A stretch of 63,522 bases of DNA, the filler included, from Hausera hauseri (lineage: Eukaryota), in the NCBI GenBank assembly GCA_046269625.1. It is 11 parts of 11 records of this genome, joined end to end, with 100 filler letters (N's around TTAATTAATTAA, not from the genome) between each part and the next. Parts side by side here need not be neighbours in the genome. Positions count along the whole stretch, not along the records: positions 37,422 to 42,080 come from JBJURY010486687.1; 10 more parts are not named here. The stretch is one strand, 5' to 3'. Below the pieces are notes generated by a model. That model had not been told where the DNA came from. It was given only the letters and a program-made list of their open reading frames with translations, and searched no databases. Below, piece after piece: positions 1,416-63,522 of this stretch (positions within the stretch are counted from its first letter, which is position 1; the number at the start of each line of letters is the position of its first letter). The position numbers and the translations under genes were made by a program.

Positions 1416-1443
1416 TCTTTCCGCCGTCACTTTACTAGTAATT

Positions 1444-13699: not shown

Positions 13700-13700
13700 C
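12164..13700 (-). mobile_element. Compact MULE (Mutator-like) DNA transposon with repeat-containing TIRs
   Basis: ~55-bp TIRs ggtggtcaga.agttgaacacaagtacagttgaacacagcaac at 12164 and inverted ending at 13700. No clean 9-bp TSD visible. Confidence 0.9.
12174..12290. repeat. Subterminal tandem array of ~15-17-bp TTGAACAC units
   Basis: Seven TTGAACAC cores alternating -AAGTAC and -AGCAAC on the left end, versus three on the right end. Confidence 0.9.
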
Positions 13701-15579
13701 TTTCATTGACATTTGGCGCCGCTGCACAGTCGTCAATTAACGATTACGTTGAATAATTGATTCCCTTTGTTGACAGTGACGCCGAAGGCGAAATTTATGT
13801 GTATTTATATACGTAAAAAAATTGAAAACTGTTTGTTGTATTGGTGATAACAGAAAAATAAAGTGAAGTTTGTTATTATTTTTTTATATTTAAAATAAAA
13901 TTATTGAATAAGGCTTATTCTGACAATCGGGGCTACTTTATCTAACACTGTCTGAAATTATTTTAAATAACGGTCTTGTCCTGGTAGCATTACCGACTAA
14001 CATTTGCTACAGAAGCAAAAATCCTGCATTAAAGGTTCTTATCTGGCAGCATTGCCAACAAACCATTCTGACTAAAAGTAACGTGCACTAAAGCTTCTGC
14101 CTGATAGACAATACTTACTAAGCCGCAAATTCTAACGCCATCTTTCGTACTGAATTGTGAGAATAGCCTCTATTGTCGAATTACTGTTGCAAGATAAATA
14201 AGCAAAATACTATTTCACAGGTGTTATCCTAGTGATACTACCTGAAGAAGGGTTGTCAAGTCGATTCTTGGTGACTCACCAACATCTTTGACCCAAATTA
14301 ATTTAACGAACAATAAAGATAATCCATAAACTTCGTGTTTCGAATTCGTATCGCCTGCCAAATACCAATTGTACAAAGATAAGTCAGTGCTTGGTATGAA
14401 AATCGTTGATTGACATTCGTATATCATTAAGCTTGAAGCCGAACTCACTGTAAGGCTAACACTGGTCCGACCTCCAACAGTTAAAATAAATCCAACGGAT
14501 CATAAATTTAACAAAAGTACAAAAGATTTTGCTGATAAACGAAGTCTTTTTCGGCTTTTAATTTTGTTTTAAATAGAAAGACTTTAAGAAAAGTTCTGCT
14601 TTTCACGAAGAAGTATAAAAAGCACAAAAACAAATTTGCCAGGGAACATTTAAATTTAGCGTCTCTCGTTTTATATTTGAAATTATATCCATCGATCGGC
14701 CTTAAATAACGGACTTTAATAATAAACAGTAACATTCATAAAACAATGTGACAAATGTTATAAGTAATCGGTTTTTGTGAGATATTTGATTTTAACCTTA
14801 TTTTAAATAAAAATACTTAATAGTTCGCTGTGTCAAATAATTGCAACTTCAAACAATACTCCAACCCGAAATATTTCCCTTTAAAAGCAATGTCGCCATA
14901 TAGTTTTATACAATTCTAAAAATTGTCAGAAAATTATTTTCATTTTCTGTTAAAATTTCATGGTGTTTTACTTGTCGAATAACGTAATGAAAGTAATTTA
15001 ATTATTAAAATTAAGCTAAATCAAATTTTATCAGCATTTTGAAACACAGAAAGTGTTTCCAGGAATTTTCTGCTTGTAAAGAAGGCTGGCCTGAGAAGTT
15101 CGAGATATGCTTCCTCACATGGTTCTATCTTTACAAAATACATCCACTGTAGCCTGGTGTTAGCTATAAAAACATATTTACTCCTCTTACACACCATAAC
15201 CCACATATAATAAGTCCGTATCACCCTCATATGTCAGTATCACCCTCATATATTATTGCCTATTACCCTTGTGTGTGTGCACAGGACTGCCTGGATAAGA
15301 AAATCCATTGTTATCCCACCTCATTCATCCACTGCCTCCTTTTTGCTCCATCTTCATTCCAGCTGTTTATCACCACTTTCATTCCATCATCACTTCAAAC
15401 CTTCCAGGAGGCCTGCTCTGACTTCTCTGTGAATACGCTGGCTCCAGGTCAGTCAGCACCCAGGTGTGTTGGTGGGTTTNNNNNNNNNNNNNNNNNNNNN
15501 NNNNNNNNNNNNNNNNNNNNNNNTTAATTAATTAANNNNNNNNNNNNNNNNNNNNNNNNNNNNNNNNNNNNNNNNNNNN

Positions 15580-18500
15580 CCAATTGCCATTCTAAATTTT
15601 GTATTGTTAGGTAATATAGTTTCTTCCCCAATGTCCTTTAAATATCCTGGTTCCATGGGTGTTTCGACGGGTTTGGAATCATTTAAATTAAATCTGTCAA
15701 TAATTTCTTGTATTTTCACATTTTGATTTAATGCGAAGTGTCCTTGTTCAGTTTTCCTTATATTGATTCCAAGGTAATATCTGACGGGTCCTAGATCCTT
15801 AATCTCATATTCTTTACTTAGACTCTCAATCGTTTCTTTAATTTGAGATTCGCTACCGGCAATTAAGATGTCGTCTACATAAACAACAACATATATGGAA
15901 TTTTTGTCCTTTTTACTAAAGTATAAACATGGATCAGCTGTGCTTTGTGTGAAATTTAAATTTTTTAATGTTTGGCTAATCCTTGTCTGCCATGCTCTGG
16001 CGGCCTGTTTGAGTCCATATATGGCCTTCTGCAATTTGCAAACTTTGTTTTCCTTTCCTGGAACAACGTATCCCTCAGGTTGTGCCATGTATACATCTTC
16101 GTTCAGATTTCCATGTAGAAAGGCAGTCTTCACGTCAATGTGATTGACGTTCAAATTTTTATGGGCTGCGGTGGCAAGCAACGCCCTAATAGTTGTATGG
16201 GATACCACCGATGCGTAAGTTTCATCATAATCTTCACCGAATTTTTGTGAATAACCCTGAGCCACTAGTCGAGCCTTAAATTTTTCTATTTTGCCTTCGC
16301 TGTTATATTTGGATTTAAAAGTCCATTTACTACCTATGATTCTTTTTCCTTGCGGGAGATCTACGAGTGACCATGTGTTATTTTCCTTGAGAGAATTGAT
16401 CTCTTCTTGTGTGGCCTGAAGCCATTTTGATTTCTCATTTGGGTTCTGTAATTTTTGTATATCTGACCAGCTACGCGGTTCTTGTACGTGATCATTAACA
16501 TAATATATTAATCTATCTGGAGGAACTCCCTTATTTGATCTTAATGATCTTCTCGGCTCTTCATCAGCAGCACTTGTAGGTGTTGAATTTTCGCTGGTGT
16601 ATGATTCAGACAAGTCTATTTCAATTTCAGAATTTTGATGATTATTTGACTCTTCAAGAAATTTAACAGTTCTAGATATGATAATATTTTTATTCCCTGT
16701 GTAAATTCTATAGCCTTTAGAGTTAATGTCGTATCCAACGAAGATACCTGCTTGTCCCCTGTCATCTAGTTTAGATCTTTTAGTTTTGTCAACATAAGTG
16801 TAAACCTTGCATCCGAACAATTTTATATTCGATAAATTAGGCCTGTATTTTTCCCAAAGTTCAAATGGAGTTTTCTGGTTAGCCTTGGTAGGTAGTCGGT
16901 TCTGCAAGTAAGTGGCAGTGTGAATTGCCTCTCCCCAGAACTTGTGTTCAAGATTTGCTTCATTGAGGAGACATCGCGTCATTTCCATTAATGATCGGTT
17001 CTTACGTTCTGCTACACCGTTCTGAGGTGCGCTGTATGGAACGCTTAATTGATGGACAATTCCAAGAGATTTTAAATAGTCTACCATATCAGTATTAATG
17101 TATTCTCGACCATTATCAGTTCTGATAGCTTGCGGTACTTTACCGAATTTATTTTTTATCATAAGTACGTATTCCTTTAGTTTACTGAAGACTTCCGATT
17201 TATTTGATAAGAGAAATATAGTAGTATATCTACTAAAATCATCGATAAATGTCAAAAGATAGGTTTTCCCTCCAATTGTTGGGGTTTTTAGCGGTCCGCA
17301 TAAATCACTATGTATGAGTTCTAAGACTTTTGTAGCTCTGTGTTGAGCTTTATGAGGGTAAGGTTTACTTGTTAACTTGGATTTAGCGCATATCTCGCAA
17401 TCGAGATTATGTGTGCATTTGTTTATCTTTATACCTATGGCTAAATCTTCCCTAACCGTTTGCTTGATGGCTTCGTAGTCTCGATGACCTAATCTTTTAT
17501 GCCATATATCAATACAGTTTTCATTACTGCAGTGGTGGGCTAAATTCACGCAACCTGGAGGTTTATCGTTTTGGAAAGTCACCTGATATAAACCCTCTTT
17601 AATCTGTGCAGTTAAACAGATTTTTCCTGCGTATGTGAAATGGCAGTATTCCTTTTCAAAAGTCACTGTACACCCATTTTGAGTAGCTTTCTTCACCGAC
17701 AATAAATTTGTTTTAATATCTGGTACGTATAATACATCCTTTAGTGTAATTCTATTTGTTTCGTTATTTGGGGTCCTTTTTGTTAGTATTATTTCACCTG
17801 ATCCATAGGAAGTAAGCGTTTGTCCATTGGCAATTATAACTTCTGATTTATTTGTATTGTACACTTCGGAGAATAGATTTTTATCATTAGAAATGTGGGA
17901 TGAACTTCCACTGTCTATTATCCATACATTATTGCCTGGTCTTTCTGTGATAAATGCAAAATTATTCATTTCTTCGTTTAATTTTTCAACCTCCTTGGGG
18001 TTTACTTCCAGTGATTCATTACAAGGTGTGGTCCCTGTATTCATTTCCAAACATAGCGATGATTTATTTTCTGTTAATTTTGTTTTCATTTGTTGATTTG
18101 TACTTTTAAGGTGCCAGCAATTTTGTTTAGTATGATTTTTTCGTTTGCAATATGTGCAAAATTTGTCCGCCTTAGGATTAAAGTAATTTCGTTTGGTATT
18201 ATTGCCATGATAATTATTGTGATAGTTGTGATTTTGGAAATGTCTATTTTTGTTTATTTGAAATGCCTTCGTGGCGTCTTGTTGAGTGGCATTCTCAATT
18301 CGCCTAGAATATTCATCTATCAGTTTGCTTTTCAAAAAACTTGGATTGAGTTCCGACTCGGGTCTGGCCTCAAGAGCTGTAATAAGTGTATCATAAGATT
18401 TCGGCATAGAGCATAAGAGAAGAGCGGAGATGTGTGAGTCACTTATCACTTCCCCGATGGCGTTCAATTTATCTATAATTTCTAAAATTTTTGTTATGTG

Positions 18501-18854
18501 AGTGTTCATATTTCCGCCTTCCTCAAGTTTTGTATTATACAATTTTCTCAATAGGAATAGTTTACTGCTCAGATTTGTTCTTTCGTGGACATTTTTTAAC
18601 GTATCAAAGGTTTCCTTAGCCGTCGTTAAGTGCTTGACGTGCATTATCTGCGAATTGTCTATGAATAAGTTAATCAAGGCCCTTGCTTTATTATCTTTCT
18701 TTTTCCATTCACTAGTTTCAGGTGTGGGAGGACTTTCAGTAACTAAGTCATATAAATCCTCTCTAATGAGAACCATCTGAATTTTAAATTTCCACGTACT
18801 ATAATTATGTTCATTTAATTTTTCAATTATTTGGCTTTCTTTAATTGAACACAT
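15580..18854 (-). CDS. Copia Gag-Pol part 1 (Gag, CCHC knuckle, protease, integrase, RT)
   Basis: NYSTWKFKI, CTYCKRKNHTKQNC, WIIDSGSSSH, WHKRLGH, HSDLCGP, RTDNGREY, QNGVAERKNR, HIDVKTAFLHG, YVDDILI. PR-IN-RT order is copia-type. Confidence 0.97.
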
Positions 18855-19094
18855 GTTTACGCACTTTATTCACTTCGTATCAAAATACAATATCTTTTCG
18901 AAAGTGAAAGTCAATAAATTCAATACTTTTGAGATCGCTTATAATATAGGATACCATAAAATAATAATGAAAATTGAAGCAAACATTATGCACAAATATA
19001 CTTATATAGTTGTATAAAACAGTTCAAGACAGCATACTGAGCTTCTATAATCATTCTTATTTGTTGCGCATTTATGCGTTATTCATTTAATGCT

Positions 19095-21169: not shown

Positions 21170-23200
21170 CAAGTGGGCCAAAGGGCACCTGCCGTTATGG
21201 GCACCACATTCACCCTTTCTCAATCGCTTCAAAAAGAAGCATTCAACAACATCCATTAGTTGCATCATCCTGGTGCCAAGGCCATTTTCGACTCTTACAA
21301 CGCCAAGTAGAATGGCCGTCGATGCGCTCTGACATGCAGGCATCGGTTATACAGTGTGTGACATGTCCAAAATACAAAGTTACTAAGCACTTAAAGCCAT
21401 CACAATATTATTTTCCCTGCACGTCTCGTTATGAATCAGTTCACATGGACCTTGTAGGCCCACTACCCTTAGACAACGGCCATCAGTTCATCCTCACAAT
21501 GATGGACCGTTCCTCGCGATGGTTAGAGGCTGCCCACTTCGCAGCACCAACATAAAAACAATCGCAGACGTTTTCATTCGCACTTGGATCAGCAAGTTTG
21601 GATCACCTCGCCATATCATTTCGGACCAAGGACCACAGTTCGAATCCAACCTGTGTAAAGCTCTTGTCAATCGATTGGGAATTAACCACATCAACACGTC
21701 ACCATATCATCCTCAATCGAATGGCCTTCTCGAACACTTTCACCAAACAATAAAAACGTCTCTCAAAATCCTTGCTGAGTCCAATCGCAGTTGGACTACA
21801 CTCCTTCCGTTTCTTCTGTATGGCTGGCGGAACACACCATCTACTTCTGCGGGCTGTTCACCTGCAAAAGCATTATTTGGCACTTCTATCATACCATTAT
21901 TCGAGCTCGCTGAGCTGGACAATATTCCTACAGACGACACTATACAAGCGGCTCAGAGACACTTCGTTGAGTTCATCAAAGACTCATTTTGTAGATTGTT
22001 ACACGGCAATAAACCCTGCATACTCGACGATTTATACTGCCAACTTCATATGGCTAAAGAATCAGAAGCCGTGAAGTTTTCAACCTCAGTATGTTGGACC
22101 TTACAAAGTAATTCGTTTACACTCCCACAACATCATCATCCTCAAAGACGACAAAGAAGTCTACATCAACAACGCTAAGCCGGCTTTCTTCATTGATGAT
22201 ACGCATCCCATCGAAACCAATTCTCGACCAACATTTTTACACGACGCACAAAAATCCAACAATTGACCCTCCATCTCTGCTCTATTCTATAACCCACTTT
22301 CCCCTACGTTTTCTCCTAAGAATTCTATTTCAATTTCTTCTGACAGTTCAGCCTCCTTTTCCCCATCCGATTTTACACCTTCAAGCCTTTTCACACGTCC
22401 TTCATACGCTGGTGACAACCTGCTTCCTCCTTTTACAAGACCTTTTCCGCCAAACACCACTTCGACTTCACCAATATTTCCATATTCCTGCTCTCTTCAG
22501 TTTTATCCATCTTGGCCGTCTTCGCTCTCTCTCCTTCCACACCTTCCTCCCTATCTCCTCACACATCGTCTTTTACTCCTTTCATTTTCGATTCGCAGCT
22601 TCCTCCTCTCTCTACCCTATCCTTATCTCTCTTTCTCTCTCTACCACTACCTCTGTTTCATCTTCCACTTCCACTCTTTCGCCTAATACAGTTCCAACTT
22701 CTATTCCAATATTTGTATCTCTTCCTTCATCCGCCACTACACCTTTTATTATTCCTTCGACTTCTAACACTCTCTTGAATAGCTTCAACCATCTGTTTTC
22801 AACAATCTCTCTTCCTCCTTCACCTTCTTCTCTTTCTTCTGACTCATCTTGGCACGACACAACACTCACAACAAAATACCACAATTTTCTATAACTTAAA
22901 CTTCTGCAAGCAAACACACAGCATAAAAACAAAGCACGAAGAGTAACATTCAGCAAGTATAGCAGGAAAAAATCAGCAGAAGACACCCAACGTCTTGTGC
23001 ACACTAAGACCAACTGACATACACCCATTTTCGTTCAGCGATAGTTTCTTTCCGACTGTGTTGATCTTTGTAGTTTTCACTTTGCCATGGGAGTGATGTG
23101 GTGCCCACAGCGGCCGGTGCACTTTGGCCCATTTTGGTTGCACACGGCCGGGCGTCAGTTGCCGCCGCATCGGGTCCGTAGTCGGGCCCGATAAGCCATC
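21170..23200 (+). mobile_element. Ty3/gypsy 3' part: decayed integrase, Ser/Thr/Pro-rich tail, PPT and start of 3' LTR (23097)
   Basis: HHPG, VHMDLVGPLP, IISDQGPQFES, TSPYHPQSNGLLE, GPY motif. GGGAGTGA|TGTGGTGCCC junction. Confidence 0.9.
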
Positions 23201-26300: not shown

Positions 26301-27388
26301 ACCGGGCAGAGATAACGTATTTTCCTATATTTTGCAATTAAGAATGTTGGTCTTCAACACCGAATGGATATTAACAACACATCATCCAAGCGACAACAAA
26401 TAATTTTCCATCTTGAGTTTTGTTTTTTGATCGGTTATAATAACAAAAATGGAACTTCTTCAATTCCATAATTATACTGTCAATCAATGCAAACTTTAAC
26501 ATTTCAATTGGATTTTCAATTTCACGCTTGTCTGAATCCAATCGAATTTTGTAATTCTCGACTGATTTTAACATGAAATATAACGATAGTAACTTGGTCA
26601 AAATGAATCGAATTGCGACATTTGAACAGCCGTGGTGGGGTGTCGTGAACAAGAGCCGGATACCAAATTTTGTAATATTTTTTATACGTGTTTTAATTGC
26701 ACGATAACTCAGAAATACAAGTTGTAGCTTCTTTAAAACGTTTCAAATAAACTTTCGATGCTGGAAAAGTGTTTTGTTTTTACGGATTTCTCCAAAAGGA
26801 TTGAAATAAATAATACGTTACGGGTTGTAATGAATTGTACAAGTCCTATGAAACAAAATGACAATGATACGTGGTTGGTGCATCGGAATGTAACAGATGG
26901 TATTTCCGTGCACCAGAAAAACAGTTATCGGTTTTGATTATATAACCCTGATTCTTTATGTAAAAGGTGCTATCGAGAATTCAGATATACAAACTGCAAT
27001 CTACAATTGGTGTCAGGATCAAAAATCCTACGATTTGATTTGTCGGACTCCGGAATATGAATTTTCACCCACGATTTTTGCGGAAAATTGCAAACCTACA
27101 ATTTGGAACTATGTAGTGAGTTCGGTTTTTGTTTGTTCGATACCCTGCGGCTGTTATTTGTGTCGCAATTTACTTGTTGGGTTAAAATCGAGAGTTATAA
27201 AAAATCTAATCCTAAATTGTAAAAGAAACATTACCTTCGGATTGAGACGGACAACATTCACTGTAATTTATATGACATATTACAAATCGTTTTATTGCAA
27301 AACTTTATCAAATCATCCGGATTACGGTAAACATAATCGAAATAATAATTATATAGAAACTGAAGCCACGTTTTACCATTTAGTATGT

Positions 27389-29645
27389 ATGGATGCCAAA
27401 CTGATATCTGGAAAAGATGTTGCAAAAACGATTCGGGATGATTTGACAAAACGAATTTCACAAATTCAGTCATGTCAATCCGGCTTTCATCCATGCTTAG
27501 CGATTGTCCAGGTTGGTAATCGTGTAGTTTCCAATGTGTACATTCGACAAAAATTAACTAACGCGGATGAGTGTGGTATTAAAGCACGACACATCAAGCT
27601 ACATAACACTGCCACTGAAGATGAGATTTTGAAAGTTCTCGATAAACGGAACAGTGACAATAGTGTGCATGGAATTGTAGTGCAGCTACCGCTCGACTGT
27701 ACGAGTGTTGTTAATTCTAATTTCTACAAATTCCATTGCAGTGGAAAAAGATGTCAATGGGTTGAGTAAAAATTGCCGGTAAATTGGCACATGGGGAACT
27801 GATTTCATGTGTTGTCCCATGTACACCGAGAGGTTGTTTAGAGCTTATATCGCCTACCGGTTTAAGTAACCCAGGAAAACATGTTGTTTTAGGCCGATGT
27901 AAAATAGTTGGTCGACCAATGGCTTACCTGTTGTTATGGAGCCATGCAACAGTTACAGTTTGTCATTCGAGAACTAAAATATTACTAATAAAGTTAGTAG
28001 AGCTGATATTCCCCTGGTTGCCATTAACAAAGCACAGTTTGCGAAAGGTGACTGGATTAAGTCCGGATCGGTTATTATTGATTGCGGTATATTCACCAGT
28101 CCTGACTCAGATAACAAATTGGGGAAAAAACTTGTTGGTGATATTGAATTTGAAGTGGCTAAAACTCGTGCTGTTTAGATACCCCCAGTTTCCGGTGAAG
28201 TTGGGGCTATCACAGTGGCAATGCTACTAAAGAGTACTGTTGATAGTGGGGAGAGATTAATTGAAAGGAACCAGAACACAAATTTTACTAGTTTACCAAA
28301 CCCCTTAAAATTACAATCAAATGTGCCTTCGGATATCGGCATATCTCGGTCACAAAAACCGTAACCGATTTCCCAGATATCAAAGGAAATTGGCATTTTA
28401 CCCCACGAACTTGATTTATATGACGAAAGTAAAGCGAAAGTCAGTTAGGATATTTTATCACGACTGACGAATTGCAAGAATGGGAAATATGTACTTGTTA
28501 CTGGAATCAATCCAACACTATTCGGTGAGGGCAAAAGTATAACAGCAATAGGTCTGAGTCAAGCTTTATTCGAGTGTTTAAAAAAGAATGTTTTTGCATA
28601 CTGTAGACAACCGTCTCAAGATCCAACTTTCGGAATTAAAGGAGGTGCCGCAGGCGGCGGTTATTATCAAATTATTCCAATGTACGAATTTAATTTACAT
28701 TTAACGGGTGATATTCATGCAGTCACTGCTGCCAATAACTTACTGGTGGCTGCTATCGATGCTCGAATGTTTCACAAAAACACTGAAAGTGACACTGCTT
28801 TGTTCAGTCGTTTAGTCCCATCTGATCATACCGGTCATCGTAAATTGTGTGCAGTACAATTGGAAAGAATTCAAAAGTTGGGTATATCAAATACATACAT
28901 AATGACATGGGACGAAACGACAATTCGTCGATTTGCTCGACTTGATATTAATCCCAGTACGATTCAAGTCGAACGAGTTATTGATAATAACGATAGATTT
29001 TTACGAAAAATTACGATTGGAAAGTCTGCAACAGAAAAGGGTCATGAAAGAGATTGCCAGTCTGATCAAAGCGTTGCTAGTAAATTGATGGTCATATTAT
29101 CTCTGTCCACTAGTTTACAAGACATGCGACAACGTATTGGGCGATTTGTAGTCGGATTTAGTAAATCGGGGATCCAATTACAACAAGTAATTTGGGTGTT
29201 TGCGGTGCAATTACAGTTCTGATGAAAGAAACTATTAAACCCAACCTGATGAAATCCTCGGAAGGTGGTCCGGTAGTCGTTTATATCGGACCATTTGCTA
29301 ACATAGCACACGGAAATTCATTAAACATAGCTGATACGATTGCTCTTAAACTGGTAGGCGAGAATGGATATGTTTTGACTGAAGCCGGATTCGGTGCCGA
29401 TATTGGAGCAGCAAAGTTTCTTAATATTAAATACAGATCGTCTGGTCTCGTACCAAATGTTGCCGTTTTGATTGTATCGCTTCCAGCTCTTAAACTTCAT
29501 GGTGAAAATATCAAGAAACAAGGAGTCCTCATCGTCGTTGCTTTAAACAATTTCAAATACGATCATACGGAAGAAATCGAAGCAGTTTGTCGAATAGCAA
29601 TAGAAAACTGAGCGCACGATGCTGTTTTAGCTTCTCATAGGGCTC
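27389..29645 (+). pseudogene. MTHFD1: Trifunctional C1-tetrahydrofolate synthase pseudogene (FolD + FTHFS domains)
   Basis: [109 protein letters not shown]. Multiple frameshifts and stops, 3' truncated, intronless. Confidence 0.93.
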
Positions 29646-31150: not shown

Positions 31151-32000
31151 AGAAAATTAATTATTCGAAAAGTTCGACTTGTATTCGAGTTTTTCGAATA
31201 TCGTATGTCATAATTGGATACAGCACATGTTAGTTTCTATGTGCGTACGCTTTTAGATTTTTTGATTTTCACTTGCTTGTGTGCTAAAATTAACTTCAAA
31301 TGTTTTATCGGGAAACCGTTATTATTGATTAAGGCACACTTGCATATGTGCCACGCATGTGCAAAGTGCCATATAGATGCATTAAGACATGGGGAATCGA
31401 CTGGCGCTCTCAGATTTCTCAAAAAATTTGTGGGTGTCAAGATATTTGATACTATTCGATGAAAGTCGATAAATCTGAGATGGAAGACCCGGGTTACAAT
31501 GTGGCAATTCCTATCTGTCCCCGCTTAAACATTTGTCAAATTTGGCTTCCTTAAGGCCTAAAAAACCTATGAGGGTTCTCGCTCAGTTGAACTTGGTACA
31601 CACTTCAAAAAATATTCGATCGATTTAAATTCTAAGTGCACAGGGTTGTAGCCAATCAAAAACTCGTTTGAACTGCGCTCTCCAAATGTGCTAATCATCA
31701 ATATTGGAATTATCGGAAATCCGATATTACTGATTTTTGCACACTTGCACTGTGAGCTGATCGACGTGCACTAATGTACACTATCGATTAGCACTATCCC
31801 GATCGATTCCGATCAATACTGTACCGTGCAGCGATCAATTGTGAAAGGTGAAAAAGTGCCCCTAGCAACGGCACCGTTGCCTAGCACATTACCGATCGGT
31901 AATGCTCCATGTGCACTATCGATTAGCACATGTGCACTAGTGATTTTGCACTGTGCGACCCCTTCCGGGGGTTGAGGGAGAACCCGCATTGTCCCCTACT
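31151..32000. repeat. Long copy of the palindrome-rich repeat (probable Polinton-type TIR), followed by (TATG)n
   Basis: 31620-31940 aligns with 1755-2100 and 42200-42550. Ends gtcccctact (AGTAGGGGAC on the minus strand). Confidence 0.7.
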
Positions 32001-35809: not shown

Positions 35810-36215
35810 TCAATGGACAACAATTTTTCCACTGATAAACACATTGGCACAAAGTGGGCGAAACGATGTAAGCCTCAGTGCAGGAAACAGTTCGGGTTCA
35901 TACGTACATTCAGCAGCGACCAATTGATAATTTGTACAGATTGATTGTTTGGTGGTAGTCTAACTGAGTCGTAACCGTTATTGATTGGATTTTGTCAATG
36001 ACAATTCCGAATGGTAGTAGTTTACTCTTACTGTTGTCAGCTGTGATTGGTTTGCGACAACCCATAATACGACACTTTCCCGATTGAAATGCGATGCATG
36101 TAAAATCCGGTGGACACTTGAGGACATACTGCCTCGGCTTCCATTGATTAAAAGGTAGTGCGTTAATGTCACACCACTCGGCAACATGTCCGCGATAGTT
36201 CATATTAGCTAACAT
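35810..36215 (-). pseudogene. Divergent TATA-binding-protein-like gene (one frameshift)
   Basis: Two TBP-like repeats: ANMNYRG..CIAFQSGKCRIMG and QSITVT..INLYKL/..TYEPELFPALRL..ANVFISGKIVV. Confidence 0.75.
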
Positions 36216-36310
36216 TATGGAAACAGTGTTTATACTATAGCTATTTATATGCGTGTAACGCGATTATAAACAAATCATGTGGTGAGGAAAGTTTGTTTTA
36301 CTATTATTAT

Positions 36311-36970
36311 ATGAAGCTGCAGAATGATGCCATGTTTCAGATTGTAGGCCCCAGTGGAAGTGGCAAAACACACTTTGTGTGTAAACTATTGCAGAACTAC
36401 CGTGACATGTTCCATAAATTGCGGTACAAACACATGTACTGGTATCAGAATGTTGGTGATGATGGTGAGTTTGGTTTGACACATCGGAAATTTTGTAATC
36501 TGAAATCCATAACGGTAATTGATGGGTTTGATGAGAACTGGTCAGAGATGTTCCGCAACGGTGAGGTTATTGTAACTGACGATTTATTTCAGGAAGCCTC
36601 GAAATAATCGGACTTTAAAAACCTGTTCACGAAGATTGCACGGCACCATGGTGTGACGGTTATTTTCCTTACGCAAAACATGTTCCATCAGGGTGGACAG
36701 CGTCGAACAAGAAATCTAAATGTACACTATTTAATGTTGTTCAAAAATCCCCGTGATCAAACTATCACTGATTATGTTGTACGACATGCAGTTCCTCACA
36801 ATCGAGCCTACTTAATAGATGCATATCATGATGCTACTACCGAACCACACGGATACTTGTTCATCGACTTTACACAACAGTATCCCGATGACATGCGTGT
36901 ACGAACAGACGTTTTCAATCAGAAAGGTGGTGTATGTGCCTATAAAAAATTCGAAAATCGACGACATGAT
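36311..36970 (+). pseudogene. A32-like genome-packaging ATPase of Polinton type (single in-frame TAA at 36605)
   Basis: Walker A IVGPSGSGKT, Walker B VIVTDDL, FTKIARH..VIFLTQN, NVHYLMLFKNPRD, PHGYLFIDF, RVRTDVF. Confidence 0.9.
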
Positions 36971-37205
36971 TATTATAAAAAAAACAAAATGAAGAATTTC
37001 CGAAAAACAAGTGTTAAACGTAAACCTACTACCAAGCGGGTGTCCGGCGGTAAGAAACGTGTATCAAAACGAACAACCGCTACAGTCAAGCGATTAATCA
37101 ATTGTGTGCTTCATCGGACAACAACACCAGCACCTAGACGCAAATTGCCGTCACAGTTGCAACCGTTATAAACAAATACGTCTCATCAACATCAATACGT
37201 CAAAA

Positions 37206-37421: not shown

Positions 37422-38190
37422 CCTATATCTTCCTCGTTTTGGGCGATAATCGATTTATATTTGCATAATAATTCGTAAAATTGACAATATGCTTCCGGTG
37501 AAAATTTTATCTCAACATGAGGTGGAAACTCGGCATATTTATAAGGTTTTTCTTCGATTGTTATTGCCCATACTTTATAAGTATGGCCCAGTGTAGTATT
37601 TGCATACAACGTTACAGGAGTTGGTGCGTTATTTACTATTCTGATTGGTACTCGACCTGTCACTACTCTAGTCAAAATGTTACTGAGTATGACATTTGGG
37701 TTAACGCTTTCTTCTGGTTCAAAATATACTGGTTGGTCGTTCTCTTCGCGGATTTGAGCATAAATTAACATTTCGGTTCCGGGCGGAATATTTTCATCGA
37801 CGAGAATCCATACTTCTGGTTTTCTTTCTTTCCTTGTTTTAATCCCTTTCACTGGTTCGAGTTCAAGTAGTTTTCCGGTATGTAAATTAATCGCGATGTT
37901 GGGTAATTGCTTGAATATATCTCAACCTAACACTACATCATCAGTTAATAGATCCATTATGGCAAACTCGTGTTGAAGAATTTGGCCCATTAGTTGCACT
38001 AAGGGACTCCATTTAAATTTTGGTTTGGATTCTTGCCCGAAGGCTCCTATGCTGCTCGGATCTGACGACGATACTGGCTGCAGTTGTTTTCGTAATGTCG
38101 GCGGTATTGATTCTAACTTAATAAACGATTTTCTGATCCTGTGTCGATTGAGGCATAGACATTCCAATCTTCAATGGTAACTTTTGTGGA
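37422..38190 (-). pseudogene. Retropepsin aspartic protease and gypsy-type PR-RT linker
   Basis: VTIEDWNVYASIDTGS..DVVLG*D. Then IPPGTE..VPIRIVN..VTLYANTTLG and ELLCKYKSIIAQNEEDI(G), the motif that precedes gypsy RT. The contig ends here. Confidence 0.85.
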
Positions 38191-38879
38191 GAGCCTTCCT
38201 TCCATAACTGTTCCATAACAACTCGACACGTCCTTTGGTCGCTTAATTGAAGAAATCTTATGTCCGTTTATCATTATTTCTGGTGATGAAATGATATTCT
38301 CAGTCAACTGTTTCAGTTCGTCGTTAGGGTATAAGTCATTAATCGCTAAGTTATTTGCATTGTTTCTAATTAATGGTTCTTGTACTATTGGATATTGGGG
38401 TGTTCTTATTCCTTGTGTTCCCCAAACTGTTGATCTTGATTCTATATTACGAGCTATTCTTGGTGAGTACAATATTTTATGGTCATCCTCCGCTCGTTGA
38501 TTAGTGATCTGCATTTTCTTCAATACTCCATATTGTTTTGTTCCTTCATAAGGGTCTTCATAGCTAAAGGGTTTCCGACTAATTCCGATTTGTATGATAC
38601 CATAGACGTTCTATCGCAGTCTTCATATATTGGAGCTGTTGGTCAAATGATGGGCAAGGGTTCCTTAATTACGGAATACATCTTGTATCTATTTTGTCTG
38701 AGGATTGCTTCTCCCTTAGGCTCATCATCATCGGAGTTGTCTCTTCGTGTTATTGATTTCTTAGCTTTGCGTTTCAATAGAAATGTAGGTCTTGCTCGTC
38801 GTTTATAATTATGGTAGCCGACATGACGTTCAACGTCATTTTTCCATCGATTTTCTTCGTATGCTTTAAGCATTTTGCC

Positions 38880-40670
38880 GAACGGTGTGATAATTGCGGT
38901 TAAAATCTTTCAAGAAAATCCTGTTAGCGTGAATATTTTGTATCAATTTATAACCGCTTGGATTACCGCTGTTACTAGTTATACCAAGAAATAGATTGCT
39001 AAAAATCCAAATTCGGCTTGTCCAAAGATTAAAAATCTCCCCCATATTTTATAGAGTATTTCTGTGGTTACTTATTGGTAATGGTTTGCACCAAGTAAGG
39101 ATTCCCATTTAGCCTGATATCGAGTATCGCCAACTACTAATGCCATAGCTCCATTTAATTCGTGTGTTCTTTGTCATGAAACAGCAAGGAATTGTCGAAA
39201 AGCTTTGATTTCTTTAGGCCTGTAAATACCTTTTTGAGGTGTATCCTGAAAATTGCCATCGGTAATTCCTTTTGCTAAATTAGTTCCAGTTAGTTTTTTA
39301 GGAATGATAGTGACACCTCCATTGGGTAAGCTAACCCAATCCGTTTCGCTACGTCTGAACATTGATTTATCCAAACTTGCCTTACAATCCTTTAGGATGG
39401 TGGGTTGTGTTGCGGTATCTAGCAATACCCTGGTGAGGGGCATGGCTAAGCGTGGAGTGTTTCGATAGATCACATCGTTTTTCTTCAACGTTAAGTGGTA
39501 CGTCTCTTTTCTCGCACTCATATGTTAGTATAACTTCGCCAGTGACTCGGCCAAAGATTCCTTCTCTCATGGGAATAATCGGTGAGGCTAACTCAGGGTT
39601 TGCATAAATGAGAGCTAATTTTGTCCTCATAATCTCCGTATCCAATTTGCAATCATTAGTTATCATTTTATGGTATAACTCGGCTATTCCGACGTCCTTT
39701 ATAATAGAAGTAATCGTCTCGGTTTTTCATGTAATCTTTGATTCGAATGTCTTGCGTTTCTAAATTGTATGTTTTCGCGTTTATCTCCGTTTCTGCGACG
39801 AAGAACGCTTCATAGTTAGTAGTGAACATTACTACTTCACAACGTAAAATCATCTCCTTTTTTATGAATTTCAACCAATGTTGATCATAGATTAATATCG
39901 TAGGTGTATGATGCTCTGATACGTCTTCATGTGCTCTCAAACTGATGTCGGATTTGTCTACGTATCTTTTCCGGTAGTTTCATTAAATTTCAGTTCCTTA
40001 ATCTTAATAAAATTACAGTCTTTTCCAGCGGGCGGTTCCCATACGACGACAGAACTTTTGAAAGCACAGGTTCCGTCCTGCATATGACATTTTTGGTTCT
40101 CGGTATGTAGCTTAGTGACGCTATGGAACATCACTTTTTGGACTCGCATTTCCGATTCGTAAAAGTCGACTACTACTAAGTTCGCTTTCAATCCTTTTCC
40201 GGTGTCGTATACTGCTCCATTACATTGCCAATTATGCATATCTAACCTTCCGACTACTATTTTATGTACTCTAGTTATTTTCCCGGGCTGCATTTCTAGT
40301 TCCATAATTTCCCAATTCAGTCTTCAAGTCTCTCGGGCCTGCATGCAGTGTTGTCTTTCCAGATTCATTGGAATTGGGGGGGTGGTTGGTTTGATTATCG
40401 AGGAATGTCCGTGCATTAGTCCAAAGTGAAAAATAATACGAGATCGTCTCAGCATACACTCCATGCTGTCAAAAGATATCAACTCTTATTGCTGATATAG
40501 GAAATAACTCTTCTCCTTTGTTTCCATTTTATGTGGTCTGGCATCTTTACATGTTTCTAAGTCAATTAGTGAGTATTTTTGTCCAAGTTTAAATCTATCG
40601 CAATCTTAGACGGTGAAGGAGCCCACCTGTATTATCAGCATCATTATGGTGAACAAACTAACTAACCAAT
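38880..40670 (-). pseudogene. Chuvirus-like (Monjiviricetes/class III) fusion glycoprotein
   Basis: *DC..GQKYSLIDLETC, C...DGTC....VVW, KLALIYANP..GIFGRVTGEVI..C, PLTRVL, GIY..EI, WGRFLIFG..AIYFLV..IN, GFS*KILTA. Confidence 0.85.
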
Positions 40671-42180
40671 TAGATTCATTCTTCCGCTTGTTATTATACG
40701 TTGTAGTCAAATTCCGTATGATGTCTCAGAGTCCATTATTACTACTGTTCTTTTTGTCTTCTTCCTTGTCAAACAATTTTGGCCAATTTACTTCACACGG
40801 AAACTTTTTAGCTGCTTTTCGTGCCAAGCTTGTAGCTCAATTTAGTTCTTTCTCTCGATTTGAATTTGCTTTGATCGCCAAGTACAATTATTCTTTTCTT
40901 AGCTCTTCTGTCGTATTCTCCACCATATTTTTCTCAACTACTGCGTCGTCAGTTAGGCTACATTTTGACAGATTGAAACGCGAACTTCTCATTGTCCTCC
41001 CTGCGTTAAATATTGCCTTTTCTTTCTCATCTAATGTATCTCCCCGAACACCTGAATAATTTGCGATACGTATTAAATTTTCCATTAACTCGATTAACTC
41101 CTAACTGTCTGTACTAAAGCTAGGAATCGACATTTGTCTCAGTTCTCTAATTAATTCTTTGTTATAGTCAATCTCTTCTCGGGCTTTCCTAGGTCTTCCG
41201 ACCGGGCGTTTTGGCCTTGGGACATTGTTTGTTATTCCACTCAGTGGCACTAGGTTCTTGTCGTATTGTTCTTTGTCTTCATCCGTCTGTAAATTCTCAA
41301 AGTACATTGCAGCATCTCGTACTCCCATAATTTGTCCTACGCATTGTTCTGTTTTAGCCTTCTGCGTGGCTTCTTCTTTTGTCTGTTCATTGGCTATTAT
41401 TACTACTATCCGGTTCGTTTCGCCGGGGATAATGCCAACGTCTATTAACTGTTCTAATTCGTCGAGTATTCTTCCCTAAATTAAATGTGTAATTTAGCTC
41501 ATTTGTTCCGCCGTTATTTAATAACCATTCTCTTACGTCTTTCATGTAGGAGTACGTGGTTACCTCACATTCCTTTTTGTCCATCCACTCAGATGATATC
41601 ATTATTTTCATCGTTACCTCAGGTTTATCCTCCAAGATTTTCGCATACTTCTTTATTAAAAGTTTTGGCACCGCGCTGTAAATTGTGTTTTTACTAGATA
41701 ATTTCACTAGATATTTTATGTTGTCTTAGCTTATTTTCAGAAATATTTATTTTAATTTGTTCAATCAACTTCTTTTCAATTAGCGCTGAGTCCAATTGCA
41801 TCTCCACGTTGAATTTCCTGTTCTGTGGATACCTTTCTATTTCATTTAGGTATACCAGAGCTATAGGGTTTTCGGCCGTTATTTCAACTAAGTAAGAATC
41901 CCATTCCGGTTCATTCCTGATATCTGGGAGTCCATAGTCTAATAGAGCTGTGTTTGTCCTTTGCACATTTTCTGTAATTTCTTTCAATTTTAGTTGTATT
42001 TCTTTTATCTGTGTAGTCCGGAAACCTATGCCGTTTCCACAGGCATACTGAATCATTTTCAGTAGTTCGCCTAATTCATTNNNNNNNNNNNNNNNNNNNN
42101 NNNNNNNNNNNNNNNNNNNNNNNNTTAATTAATTAANNNNNNNNNNNNNNNNNNNNNNNNNNNNNNNNNNNNNNNNNNNN

Positions 42181-42605
42181 ATTATTCGAAAACCAATCAA
42201 TCGATTTAAATTCTAACTGCACATTCACATACAACATCAAGTGCACTACCGATTGCATCCGGTCGCGAACCCTAATGATCGATTTTTAAAATCTCGATAA
42301 TCCAATATTATTGATTTTTGCACAATTGCATATGCGCTGCACACTTGCACTTGCACCAATCGATGCATCTCGATGTGCTCTATCGATTAGCACTTTGTCC
42401 CGATCGATTCTATTAATAGTGCACTGCGCAGCGATCGATAAGTGAAAAGTGCAAAAGTGCCCTTAGCAACGGTGCCTAGCGGCACCGTTGCAGGCACTTT
42501 TTGGATCGATAGTGATCCGTGTGTGCTATCGATCGGCACAAGTGCAAAGTCGATTTATCGATTACCCCCTCCGGGGTGGGACCGAACCGCCATTTCTACA
42601 CTACT
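42181..42605. repeat. Palindrome-rich repeat end (probable Polinton-type terminus) abutting the gypsy tail
   Basis: Perfect 11-bp hairpin at 42466-42491. Ends ctacactact (AGTAGTGTAG on the minus strand). Confidence 0.75.
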
Positions 42606-45600
42606 GACTGAGAAAAGGTGTTGTGGTGGGTGAAGGAAGAGAGACGAAAGTTGGCATGGAAATTGGAAATGTATTAGGCGAAAGAGTAGAAGTAGAAGAT
42701 GAAGCAGAGGTAGTGGCAGAGGTAGAAACACAGATAGGAATAGAAATAAAAGGCGTGGAAGATGATGAAGCCGAACTAAGAGCAGAAGGAGGAGAAGGAA
42801 CAGGTGTAGCGATAGAAAGAGGAATAGTAGGACGTGTAGGAATAAGCAAAGGGGTTGACATGTCGATTGGTGAAGTGTCGTCGACGAAGAAGACGGGCTT
42901 TAAGTTGGTAATATGTATTGTAAGTTCTTTACCGCCTTTGAAAATAATGGCGTTGTGCGAATGCAGCTATACCAATTTATTGGGCCCCAGATACCGCGGC
43001 TGAAAACCGCACGACGTTTGATTCTTTAGCCATACGAATTTTGCCGAATTCAAATCTTCGGGTAAAAATGTTTTGTTTTTATGGAGTAATCTGCATAAAA
43101 AAATCTTTGCTGACCGTAACAAAGTGATTTTGCGCTGCCCGTATCGTTTCATCTGTGGGAGTGTCATCTAGGGCAGTTAGTTGGAATAATAATCGTACAG
43201 GGCCTCCGAATAAGTCTTCAGTAGGTGAGCATCCTGTAGAAGTAGACGTAGTGTTCCGCCAATCGAGCGGAACAAACGGAAGAAGATTCCTCCAATTAAT
43301 GTTGGACTCTGCAAGGATTCTTAGTGGTGTTTTCAATGTTCGGTGGATGCGTTCTAGGAGGCCATTCTATTGGGGATGGTAAGGCGTAGTATGTACATGA
43401 TGGATCTTCAATCGGTTAACAAGGGATTTGAACAGGTTGGATTCAAACTGTTGATCCTGGTCCGTGATGATGAAACGAGTTGATCCAAACATGCTAATCC
43501 ATGTACGAATGAAAACGTCAGGTATAGTGTCGGTATTTGTGCTCCGCAGAGGGATGGCTTATGGCTATCGCGAGGAACGATCCACCATGTTGAGAAGGAA
43601 TTGATGCCAGTTGTCTGTAGGAAGAGAGCCGACGATGTCAATATGCACGGATTTGAAACGTGATGTGCAGGAAAAGTGGAATAATGGTGGCTTTAAATGC
43701 TTAGTTGTTTTGTATTTTTGGCAAGCCACGCACTCCTTAACCCATGCCTGCACATCAGAACGCATTGACGGCCAAATTACTTATCGATGAAGTAAACGAA
43801 AGGTGGCTTTAGCCCCAGGATGGTGCAGCGAATGTACACTATTGAATGATTGCTTTTGCAATGATGGTGTAAGAATTATTACGGATTGACCTGGTTTAGG
43901 AGTGTCTAAACCACGCCGTCAACTATTGTGCAAGACTTGAAAGAATTAGATATGTCCTGAGGTGGCTGGTTTTGTTGAAGTTGAGCTTGAGTAAAAATCG
44001 GTGAAAAATTAACCGAACTAACCGACCTGGATAAAAAATCGGCAACCAGATTATTAACCCCATTAATATGCTTTATGTCGAAGTTAAATATCGATAAGTA
44101 CGATATCTGTCGTTTTTGGTGTTTGAAGGATGTTTCATAGCCATGATGTTAAGTAAGGGCTTGTGATCGGTTTGTATAGTAAAATGGCGAACGACAAGTA
44201 CGTGGGAGAAATGCTTTAAAGCAAGAACGATGGCCAGCAATTCTCGATCTAACGTTGAGTATCTAGATTTATGGTAAGTTAGCTTACGAGTGAAAAATTC
44301 TAGCGGTTGATTTTCTCCTTTGTAGATCTGGTGGAGTACAGCACCTACTGCAGTGTTTGAAGTAGCTGTGGTAAGGATGAGTTTTGCAACAGGCTTGGGG
44401 AAAGCGAGAATGTCGACGGTTTTAATTCCTTCGAGTAGCTTATCAAACTTGTCAACCAACTCAGGTGTCCACTGAATTGGCTGAAGTTTTTTTCCACCGC
44501 TTAAGTGTGCAAAGGGTGCTATCAATTCATAGCAATATGGTATTTATGAACAAAGTGTAGTGTTCCAAGGAAGCTGCACATTTCGGTAGTCGTACGTGGT
44601 AACTAGATAGTTTTAAGGGCTTTAACTCGGTCTGGTTGAGGAGAGTGGCCGTCTGGTGAAATAACGTGGCCCAAAAAGTTGATGTGCTTTTTGAAGAAAT
44701 GGCATTTGTCAAAACTGACTTGGAAATTATGGTGCTTAAGGCGTCGGAATATATTGCGCGAAGGTGTTCCTCGTGTTGTTTGGCCGAAGACGAAACTATC
44801 AGAATATCATCAATGTAAGGGTGGCAAAAGGGAAATCTGAGAGAATCGATTCAATATGTCGCTGAAAGGTCTGTACAGCATTTCGCAAGCCCAAAGGCCT
44901 AAACAGGTACTTGTAAAGGCCAAAAGGAGTAGTGGCAGCAGTTTTTTCTATGTCTTTGGGTGCCATCGGTATTTGGCGGTATGCTTTTGCCAAATCGATG
45001 GTTGAATAAATGGTTGTTGAATTAAGGCTATGCAAGATATAAATGATGAGTGGCAAGGGGTACGCACCCATGATAGTCAAGTTGTTCAACTGTCGGTAGT
45101 CACCGCATGGTCTAAAAGTGCGGTCCTTTTTTTTGCAAAATGTAAAGGTTACGACCAAGGAGATTTGGAATGGCGTACAATGCCGGAGTGTTCTACTTCA
45201 AGATATTCGGTTTCTACGGCCTGTATACGACGAGGTGCCAGTAGTCGTACCTTTTGGCCTATTGGTCGTTGATGTTGTCTAATTATGTGATGTACAGTGT
45301 TGTTTGTAGGGGTAAACGAACGATTTTTTAAGTATGCGTGGACACGATGTGGTAATGAATTGCTGTAAAGTTGTAGGCAACTGTGATAGATTCGGTGGTG
45401 ATGGGGAAACAGCTTGAGTAGTAGCGGATGCGATTTGTGAACTGTTTTGTGATGTGCAGTCAAGTGGTATTTGATGTAAGATGGTCGAATTGAAAATGGT
45501 GTTTGATGAAGTGATTACGTAGAGTGAATGAACACTGGTGACAGTACCACAATTAGCGACGTTGAACCGCGACTGAATGTCAATATTATTATATAAAAAT

Positions 45601-53159: not shown

Positions 53160-54304
53160 TGGTGAGGTATATGAGTTAATGTTTTTCACCCTTTATATAG
53201 ACCTATTCAATATCCAAACTACTAAGATAATTCATCTGTGTCTGGAATTGTAGAGATATGGGTCATTTTGTTGATATCATAAAGGTTATTGCCCTGTGAT
53301 CCGTTCTTAGTTTAAACCATTAACTATATAAATAATGCTTAAAATGATCAGAAAAATAAACCACCAATAATTCCTTTCTTGTGATTCAGTGTCCTATTTC
53401 ATTTCTAAAAAGTGAATGAGACCAATAGGTTATGACATGTTCTCTACCCCTATCATCTGCTTGAGACAATACCGACCCTATGTGATCGAAACTAGCATCC
53501 GTGTCTAATATGAATGTCTTCGTAAAATGCCGAAATACTAAAATTGGAGCAGTGCACAATTTACTTTTCAAAATGTTAAAATATTTTTATGCAGTATCTG
53601 ACCAATACAACTTCTGTTCTTTAGACTTTCAGAGGCTTTCCAACGGTCTTGAGAATTTTGAATAATTTTTCTACAATAATTGCAGTCCCAGGAAACTTCG
53701 TAAACGCTTTACACATTTAGATTTTTCGAAATTCTGTACATTACTCACCTTGCTTGGATCCATTTTCAATCCATTTCTATTAAGCATGTGTCCCAACAAT
53801 TTAATTTCGTCTTACAAAAAATGACACTATCGGGATAATTTTTAACCCGGCTTATCTGATGCGCTCAAGCACTTCTTTTAGGGTCTGATAATGGGCATCC
53901 AGTATTTCTGAATAAATTAATATATCATCTGAGTACACAACTGCATATTTATAAATCAAATCTCCCACAGCTTTATTCATTAATTTCTGAAATGTGGGCG
54001 CGGCGGCAATTCCGAAAGGCATTCTATTGAAGCAGTACTGTTTAGTATTTGTACCGAAGGCTGTCTTAAGTTTTGAATTTTCTTCTAATTCAACCTGGTA
54101 GTACGCATTTACAAAAAAGGTGTTGAAAAAAATCTGGTTTTTCTTAAGCAATCTAATAATTCTGTGATCGGCATTGGGAAACTTGGTCTTAGTAATATAG
54201 TTAATGGCACGAAAATCTAAACATTCTAATATCATTAGTGTCTTTCTTATACACACGAAAGGACTATTTCATTCAGATTCACATTCTTTAATAATTTCAT
54301 GCCT
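53160..54304 (-). mobile_element. Decayed Ty3/gypsy RT-RNase H fragment (distinct family)
   Basis: CLDFRAIN, AYYQV..KTAF, RMPFG, VYSDDILI, FILDTDAS..IGSVLSQ, LRTDHRAI. Confidence 0.9.
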
Positions 54305-60299: not shown

Positions 60300-63200
60300 T
60301 TTCCTCTTTACCAACAATAGTTGCACATCTACAATCAACAAACCCATCAAACAACGAGAACAATATAGTTCATCAAATTCAAAATCTGCAAGCCGATAAT
60401 GCGGTCCTACATCAAGCAATGTCGTCCATCTCTAGCAAAATTGACGCTTTGTCTCTACCGCGTCGCGATCGGTTTAGCGCGGATCGAAGCAGACAGTTGT
60501 CTGCAAACTCTAGGCACAGTCAGTCACCTTCGAGACAAATGGTGTAATATTATCACACCAAATTCATCGAAATGCCAAAAAATGCTGTATAGGCTACAGG
60601 TTCTAGACGCAGCGTTTCCAATCACACGATGCGGTCTGCATCTATCACAGCAAGTTTAAAGACAATGCAAAACGCTGTTTACCTGGGTGTAAGTTTTACA
60701 CCCTGAAAACTCCAACGTCTTCATTTATTCAAAAAAAAAACGAATAAAGCCGTCAGAAACTACGGAAACCTCTGGAAAAGGCCATTTTTCATCACTTAAT
60801 CGCCGTACCAACGCTGTTTTCTTTTGGACGCTGCACTGACATCTTTTCCGCACCACACCAAATTTCTGATTGACTCGGATACTGCCGTCTCATTACTTCC
60901 TTTATCCTTCAACTCTTTAAAAATACTTCCCACGTCTGCCAGACTTTTCACTGACAGTGGGCAAGCTTTACACATTTCTGGTACTGCAGAATTTTTTTTT
61001 ACTTTAGCACATTTCTCTGAAGTTTTCCGATGGAAATTCATTGTCGCTGACATCAAAACTCCTATATTAGGTTCTGATTTTCTATCACATCACAATTTAC
61101 TTGTCGACTGCAGAGAGCATCGTGTCATCAAAAATACAATCGATAATACAAAATCACAAAACGGTATACAGCCTGTCGCGAATCTTGCTGCGATGATGAA
61201 ATCGATATTAAGGAAATCTGTAATCAAACTAAATGAATTGAATGTCGGTAATTCCGATTGTGACGATTCTATTTATGCAATAACTAGAAAATAACTGCTA
61301 ATTCAATCATGACTTCTCAGCCTGCATCTCCATTCTTAAAACTAGATTCAGCTCTTCGCGATTACATAACAACTTCTTGTGCCAGAACATTAAAGAAAGA
61401 CCCCAACGTTAAACCTGCTTCTACAACGTACCATTACATCGTCACTGAACACCAAAGGCCAATTAAACAGAAGGTTAGGCCACTTTCTCCATGCAGACGC
61501 AAAGCGGTAGAGTTGGAATTTAATGAATTAAAAAAGGCAGGAATTATAAGAAGATCAAAGTCACCTTGGGCCTACCTCTAAACGTAGTAGCCAAGAAGGA
61601 CGGTACTTTAAGGCCCTGTGGCGATTACCGCCAATGAACACCATTACGGTAACTGACACATATCTATTACCTCTCATCAATGATATCCTACACAGACTCA
61701 ATGGCAACACCATAGTTTTATCCATCGATCTTCATAAAGCCTACCATCAGATTCCTGTTTCACCCGCCGTCATACCGAAAACGTCTGTAACAACACCTTC
61801 CGGCCTTTTTGAGTATGTTTTCATGCCATTCGGACTTCGTAGTGCCTCTCAAACATTCCAAAGGCACATAGATACAGTGCTCCCCGGTCCAAACTTTGCG
61901 TTCCCATATATAGACAACATACTCATCTCAGCGTCGTCTCCCAAACAGCATTCTGAGCATTTACGCATAGTTTTTCAACGCCTTCACTAAAATAATTTAG
62001 AAGTAAATTTTGCCAAATGTTTCTTTTTTCAACACAATATCCATTTCCATGGTCATGTCATGACCAAATTTGGCCACTCTCCTCAGCAAAACCACACAAC
62101 TCAGCTTAAGAACATACAATTGCCCCGAACAAAAACTCATATGCGCTCTTTTTTGGCGCAATCCACTTTGTTCACAAATATGCGCCACATTGCTCTAAAT
62201 TAACCGCACCGTTTGCATTTTTATTGTCTGGGAAGAAGAAACAGTTAATTCACTGGACTCCCGAACTTGTCAACCAGTTTGACGATTTACGTAAAAGTTT
62301 AAAAAGTGTCGAAATTCTAGCGTGCCCCAAGCCTGTCGCAGAGCTGATATTAACCACAGATTCCTCGACCACAGCAGTCGGCGCAATACTGCATCAAATA
62401 TGTAATGGTGTCAACCAGCCTCTGAAATTTTATTCTCGGAAACTTACACCACCAGAAAGTCGTTATTCAACTTTCGACAGAGAGTTCTTAGCCATAGTAT
62501 TAGCTCTAAAATACTTCTCGCATCTGTTATTTGCCATGTCTTTTACGATCCAAACAGACCACAAACCACTGCTTTGCATTATGGACTTGAAAGCCCCTTC
62601 ACCCCGACAGGAACGTCACATATCGTACTTGTCGACTTTCAGTTTCAAAATGGTACATATTTCAGGCACTAACAGTCTAGTTGCCGATTTTTTATCAAGA
62701 TCGGTTAACATCATAGGAATCACGCCGATTTTTTCACAAACTGTGCTTCAGCAGAACGTGCCAACGCAGGATATTCTTAAATCCTTTAAATCACACCAAA
62801 TCATTGACGGCGTGGCCCATGACACTTCTAAACCCGGCCATCACAAACCTATACTATCTTCATCTTTGCAGAGAACTACATTTCATAGCATGCATTCTCT
62901 TCATTATCCGGGCGCTAAAGCAACTTTTCAGCTCTTACAACGCAACGTTATATGGCCGTCAATGGGATCAGACGTACAGGCGTGGATTAGGGAGTGTGTG
63001 GCATTCCAGAATTTCAAAACTAACATACATCTAAAGCCACCCCTTTATCATTTCCCCTGTACATCGCGTTTCAAATCCGTGCATATTGACCTGGTCGGCC
63101 TTCTTCGACCAAATAACGGTCATCAATTCATATTGACCATGATGGACCGTGCTTCTCCATGGCCAGAGGCCATTCCATTACGCTCCACCAACATAGACAC

Positions 63201-63522
63201 AATTTCTGATGTTTTCATCAAAATTTGGATCAGCAGATTTGGCTCGCCTTGTTTTATTCTCAAGGACCAAGGTCCACAATTTGAGTCAAATCTGTTTAAA
63301 GCCTTAGTCAATCGCTTAGGGATCAAACATATACACACTTCTCCATATCATCCTCAAGCGAACGGTTTACTTGAACAATTTTACAGCGCAATGAAGACCT
63401 CGCTCAAAATCCTTCATGAATCACACAGCAACTGGACATCTCTTTTTCCACTGGTCCTGCTCGGTTGGCGTAACACACCCTCTACAACTACGGGTTGTGC
63501 ACCAGCTGAGGCATTGTTTGGG
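60300..63522 (+). mobile_element. Decayed Ty3/gypsy element (gag end-PR-RT-RH-IN), same family as 42606-47650
   Basis: FLIDSDTAVS..PILGSDFL, SKSPWA, RPCGDYRQ, IDLHKAYHQIP, MPFGL, YIDNILI, TDHKPL, VHIDLVG, DQGPQFES, YHPQANG. Confidence 0.93.

Follow-up and report, generated by a model that had tools for sequence, protein, structure and literature searches.

The locus examined here raises the question of whether a fusion glycoprotein can stand upstream of, and be joined to, the protease of the same retroelement. It lies in a window of 63,522 nucleotides (the whole stretch of DNA that was analysed), consisting of 11 short contigs of Hausera hauseri with N spacers between them, and occupies positions 37422-42080, which make up an entire contig (4,659 bp) that truncates the element at both ends. 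A sequence-only reading had placed an envelope ahead of the protease on the minus strand and had proposed a distinct lineage, with no capsid or zinc knuckle recognised between envelope and protease, whose gene order was not known to have been described. The minus-strand order and coordinates given there were confirmed by translation, Pfam matches and profiles, and are collected in Table 1.

Table 1. Features of the envelope-bearing element and of a second member in another contig of the window
Feature	Position	Strand	Evidence or remark
Stop-free, likely helical stretch that extends to the end of the contig; probably belongs to the gag-to-env spacer	41697-42080	-	No Pfam match; neither spacer profile matched
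Short helical segment and ubiquitin-like (Ubl) domain (about 41617-41392)	41392-41722	-	Interrupted near 41475 by a frame switch
AT-hook-like GRP motif	41176-41211	-	PF02178, below cut-off
Segment at the position of the relatives' Bcl-2-like module	40741-41100	-	Homology below significance
Internal signal peptide / first membrane segment	40609-40671	-	Hydropathy; aligns with the same segment of relatives
Ectodomain of mononegavirus/gB-type fusion glycoprotein	39036-40608	-	PF24664; tblastn, colinear with 12 relatives
Envelope transmembrane (TM) helix	38933-39035	-	Hydropathy
Tail, TM helix to protease	38191-38932	-	One frame switch near 38580, bridged by other copies
Retropepsin, DTG at 38145	37880-38190	-	One frame switch after the motif; profile scores
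Protease-RT linker; contig stops just short of the expected RT start	37422-37879	-	Match to L001
Second member, other contig: Ubl, AT-hook-like motif, Bcl-2-like module, signal, env start	3-1460	-	486 stop-free codons

The minus-strand coding path is traceable over 1,553 codons with 15 stops and seven frame switches, located near 41700, 41475, 39970, 39690, 39480, 38580 and 38050-38100. As had been noted from the sequence, 41475-39961 is one frame with point stops only (seven of them), and a single frameshift, near 38580, separates the TM helix from the protease, ahead of the DTG motif. Two pieces of the envelope match PF24664 (Monjiviricetes fusion glycoprotein; E 7e-18 and 4.5e-7), and tblastn with 12 relatives shows colinearity along its entire length, with E down to 5e-67; judged by this similarity, the envelope is evidently related to mononegavirus fusion glycoproteins, and its putative class III fold follows from sequence and literature. 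The chuvirus-like glycoprotein described earlier as complete is thus real and colinear with its relatives, but three of the frame switches (39970, 39690 and 39480) fall inside its ectodomain, and where several TM helices had been proposed, hydropathy gives a single strong hydrophobic stretch after the ectodomain. The tail behind it is present, but measures about 260 codons from the end of the TM helix to the DTG motif instead of the ~230 first estimated (110-188 in relatives), and a Pfam scan gave no CCHC or gag match within it.

The retropepsin assignment was borne out by a profile of the relatives' proteases, against which both halves (15.7 and 25.8 bits) scored higher than any of 500 shuffles each, but one further frame switch lies inside it. 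The Ubl-like module likewise reached 20.2 bits against a profile of relatives, with none of 500 shuffles as high, and E 5.5e-4 in a profile search; the profiles for these shuffle tests were built from the relatives, in some cases with the second member (3-1460) added. By these scores it is homologous to the relatives' module, from which its putative Ubl fold is carried over. The AT-hook is a weak match (PF02178, E 0.09-0.19), but a GRP[KR] motif occurs at a like position in five relatives (P0005, P0010, P0012, P0018 and P0039). The segment at 40741-41100 was not significantly similar to the relatives' Bcl-2-like module, either by profile (2.5 bits, equalled or exceeded by 35 of 500 shuffles) or by hhalign (probability 0.9%, E 0.063). 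At the other end of the contig, the linker (37996-37421) matches residues 1908-2096 of the intact relative L001 at 29% identity (E 1e-12), and gave no Pfam match at E <= 1, to the dUTPase-like domain that a Burro-like element would have between protease and RT or to any other family. Protein searches with the TM/tail piece or the protease linker returned no match among longer proteins, and locus searches with pieces of 37422-42080 found none.

A profile search of the window revealed the second member at 3-1460, which is 41% identical to P0005 over 503 columns. Its structural model (P0042; mean pLDDT 53) contains a beta-beta-alpha-beta-beta domain at residues 55-128 with pLDDT of about 80 and a helical bundle at residues 209-337 with pLDDT of 37-72 by block. 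Similarity of the bundle to Bcl-2 is weak (E 0.034 for Pfam, 0.46 for BOK), and Pfam Bcl-2 matches with E 0.001-0.2 were obtained in four proteins, namely the second member and relatives. When a five-row profile was searched, Bcl-2 family chains, mostly redundant Bcl-xL entries representing one motif, made up 59 of the best 60 PDB rows (E 0.011-0.073), after a designed repeat protein. Nothing meaningful emerged when P0041 and A3 were compared with PDB sequences, and the protein atlas gave no usable match to the Bcl-2-like part of P0005; the Pfam ubiquitin match on P0005 has E 0.031. On its upstream side the second member merges into a short dispersed repeat family (1416-2112, also at 9358-9535, 31281-31946 and 42267-42605), likely a MITE.

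The other contigs of the window hold copia, MULE-FLYWCH, mariner and gypsy pieces, which point to repeat-rich animal DNA. Among them are a 1,113-codon stop-free copia gag-pol frame at 15528-18869 (minus strand), with a 77-bp exact repeat at both contig ends; a FLYWCH-MULE transposase ORF at 12152-13702 (minus strand); two mariner-like transposase copies, 89-94% alike, at 7315-8028 and 10538-11285; and decayed gypsy pol fragments at 21313-21878, 43166-45140, 53179-54301 and 61393-63519, two of which are immediately preceded by gag and protease and lack env. The plus strand additionally encodes C1-tetrahydrofolate synthase domains, spread over four long frames that leave hardly any space for introns (26894-29611; perhaps a processed copy), and, at 36209-37171, a small ATPase of P-loop type (E 1e-4 to RNA helicase, 0.002 to Pox_A32) ahead of an ORF of 187 codons whose end is basic, together perhaps what is left of a Polinton-like element or small DNA virus.

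The element at 37422-42080 is itself a decayed copy of a repeat family and not a one-off chimera. In run X1, possibly the window's own sample, 12,483 contigs align to it, all 30 of 30 bins are covered, and 2% of the contigs continue into unlike sequence. Its stops and switches look private to this copy, because seven of the 15 stops fall at codons where nearly all other copies in the best 40 rows per table differ from this one (65 such codons in the whole path of 1,553; P about 8e-7) and because length differences among other copies occur in or next to four of the seven switches; within three bases of the switch near 38580, such length differences are listed for 11 contigs, few enough for a programmed shift there to keep a small probability. 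The junction at 38880-38190, which the sequence-only reading had singled out for confirmation by spanning reads, is bridged in part, three of the listed contigs crossing the 38580 switch and one running from TM helix to tail, but no single listed contig spans from TM helix to protease.

Searching with the N-terminal half of the envelope retrieved 34 proteins, 25 of which were scanned for domains; PF24664 was found in 24, the remaining one being a repeat false match. In eight of the ten relatives longer than 1,000 aa a retropepsin follows the envelope in the same ORF, the other two stopping in or at the end of env; these long relatives are predicted proteins, and L001 is the one that was checked on DNA. 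The order env-PR-RT-RH-IN is present in four of the ten, and also in L001 and in P0039, a 4,844-aa cluster member that alone adds ankyrin repeats. In L001 a stop-free frame of 3,426 codons leads from Ubl via env to three proteases, RT and integrase; this relative matches both the envelope and the protease-RT linker of 37422-42080 in the same order. The envelope therefore stands upstream of the protease of its own element and is fused to it in intact relatives, as had been proposed; the opposing case, in which env lies behind integrase and the protease belongs to a neighbouring element, was encountered in none of the ten long relatives and not in L001. Envelope identity to the nearest relatives compared is 25-30%, and in an envelope tree of 27 rows (ten of the 34 matches, nine short and one the repeat false match, were left out) the element forms a long branch (1.81) within a supported clade of 19 rows that holds all nine module-labelled rows. 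Inside this clade the rows with a module label do not group together (147 of 200 shuffles gave a value as low), a result in which P0013 is wrongly labelled as having no module, a weak Ubl match being present.

In L001 (2-10282), P0012, P0013 and P0039, additional signal-plus-TM membrane proteins follow a protease or integrase in the same ORF, and up to four protease copies occur per ORF. A separate ORF behind the L001 polyprotein (10617-12107) carries an exonuclease domain (PF00929, E 1.4e-5), and no LTR was found in L001. The env-pol polyprotein P0013 is annotated as a hypothetical protein in a Flavobacteriaceae MAG and probably stems from animal DNA that was assigned to this bacterial genome during binning; a protein search with it returned the query alone. 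Profile alignment A2 found one locus in metagenomes and none in viral contigs or prokaryote genomes.

The sequence-only reading had recognised no LTR, primer-binding site (PBS), capsid or CCHC knuckle between TM helix and protease. None of these, nor any LTR-like repeat, was found within the contig, but the observation is uninformative: the contig ends on both sides, so that LTR, PBS, capsid, knuckle, RT and integrase lie beyond its ends. A lineage without capsid and knuckle is not supported by the relatives, five of which (P0005, P0010, P0013, P0015 and P0021) carry a CCHC knuckle ahead of env. In P0005 and P0010 the knuckle precedes the Ubl by about 200-260 residues, while the contig has ~157 codons before the Ubl. 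Because the relatives' knuckle sits beyond the point where the contig ends, ahead of the same Ubl module, the apparent envelope-first order more likely represents gag-env-pol with gag cut off.

A closely comparable architecture has been described in Burro, for which Arkhipova & Yushenova (2019, PMC6431247) give Gag-Ubl-BCL2-Env-PR-RT in one ORF. As depicted there, these giant gypsy-like elements of planarians (Burro / GYPSM1) share with the present family the Ubl, the position of BCL2, a mononegavirus-like env held in frame between gag and pol, the protease, a linker before RT and a high copy number, and decayed Burro fragments with stops and frameshifts are reported from Dugesia japonica (PMC6431247). 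The likeness is one of description and not of sequence: the MATH, BIR and ankyrin domains, the size and the LTRs of Burro fall outside the 37422-42080 contig, and its BCL2 module has a counterpart in this copy that is below significance. Burro1 is elsewhere cited as planarian-specific and with an anti-apoptotic role (PMC13465017). Taken at the level of domain order, the Hausera element would work like Burro.

Nematode endogenous retroviruses reportedly possess a continuous gag-env-pro-pol ORF, and are not known to carry Ubl or Bcl-2-like modules; mosquito BEL/Pao elements with a chuvirus glycoprotein are said to carry env behind pol. Both groups are cited by Chary & Hayashi (2026, PMC13524379), the former for its flipped env-pol order (Sacco et al. 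2022) and the latter from Dezordi et al. (2020). As portrayed there, the nematode elements resemble the present family in having an RNA-virus glycoprotein between gag and pol, whereas the mosquito elements share the broad glycoprotein family but not the gypsy-type pol and pre-protease env of our relatives. Against a BEL/Pao element with chuvirus glycoprotein stand the lack of env behind integrase in the ten long relatives and that of any BEL-specific Pfam family among those listed for the relatives scanned. The same paper describes GAG-ENV-POL errantiviruses with HSV/gB-type ENV in Platyhelminthes, Bryozoa and Nematoda, listing nine flatworm and ten bryozoan elements, and ENV-GAG-POL in two oribatid mites (PMC13524379). 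The GAG-ENV-POL elements, again likened by description, are Ty3/gypsy with a chuvirus/gB-like env ahead of pol as in the relatives found here; the main text does not discuss an env-pol fusion, unlike what is seen in our fused relatives. Thus, the suggestion that the gene order is undescribed had to be abandoned: it was in print for Burro in 2019 (PMC6431247) and again in 2026 for flatworms, bryozoans and nematodes (PMC13524379).

Taken together, these observations make it highly probable that 37422-42080 represents an inner part of one dead copy of a retroelement that is present in high copy number and has env upstream of the protease, likely a Burro-like Ty3/gypsy Gag-spacer-Env-Pol polyprotein, a placement that rests on relatives with 25-30% envelope identity because RT, gag and LTRs lie outside the contig. 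The same order could also be read with env and pol in separate frames connected by a programmed ribosomal shift near 38580, making Pol rarer than Gag-Env. In Ty3/gypsy elements pol is commonly preceded by a programmed shift, exactly one switch lies between the TM helix and DTG, and the tail is longer than in relatives (about 260 against 110-188); however, the 11 contigs that vary in length within three bases of the switch, the six further switches of this copy at places where relatives stay in frame, and the fusion of env and pol in eight of ten long relatives render this reading improbable.

Very improbable is a gag-less or ENV-GAG-POL element like those of the two oribatid mites, whose tail would conceal a short gag or which would be devoid of capsid. 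ENV-GAG-POL with a short gag is on record (PMC13524379), the contig has neither capsid nor knuckle, and the tail could accommodate about 250 residues, but it yields no CCHC or gag match, and what lies upstream of env shows homology to the spacer located behind capsid and knuckle in P0005 and P0010. A chance chimera, whether by insertion of a viral glycoprotein or by the 3' env of one element lying beside the protease of a nested one, is hardly credible: although none of the listed contigs crosses the whole junction, cover by the family is even with only 2% of contigs running on into unlike sequence, L001 matches env and pol linker in order, and no LTR-like repeat was found in the contig, so that this explanation is largely refuted already.

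For the favoured Gag-spacer-Env-Pol polyprotein, a topology model can be drawn from hydropathy and general knowledge of signal peptidase and retropepsins. The chain would begin in the cytosol, an internal signal would thread the Env ectodomain into the ER lumen, and the single TM helix would return the chain, so that protease, RT and integrase remain cytosolic. Signal peptidase would free the N-terminus of Env, leaving Gag-spacer anchored by the signal segment, and separating Pol from the tail of Env would fall to the element's own protease when chains cluster at the membrane. Gag, Env and Pol would thereby be produced 1:1:1 and might be released by budding in an enveloped particle able to fuse with a further cell, while the Ubl and Bcl-2-like modules may act on host ubiquitin and cell-death pathways. 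In P0039, P0013 and P0012, hydropathy places signal-plus-TM pairs of hydrophobic segments on either side of each luminal module, and an Ala or Gly directly precedes the conserved env start in all 15 relatives examined; the hydropathy scan skips some segments (in P0021, P0010 and L001) and leaves one unpaired in L001.

With the gene order already published, 37422-42080 adds one divergent family, at 25-30% envelope identity, and intact relatives such as L001 are better objects of study than a dead fragment without RT. The questions that matter are those of the whole group, namely how a two-pass Gag-Env-Pol chain is processed, whether a 1:1:1 stoichiometry yields infectious particles, and what role is played by the Bcl-2-like module and by the additional membrane proteins. 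A rather unlikely reading is that the host is not a planarian and that the Ubl-Bcl-2-Env cassette is therefore the hallmark of a lineage widespread in animals, with a membrane-stitched chain for the whole particle. If so, Gag, fusogen, enzymes and one or two more type I membrane proteins would be laid down in a single chain and cut by signal peptidase together with up to four tandem proteases, in a manner closer to a flavivirus polyprotein than to a retrovirus.
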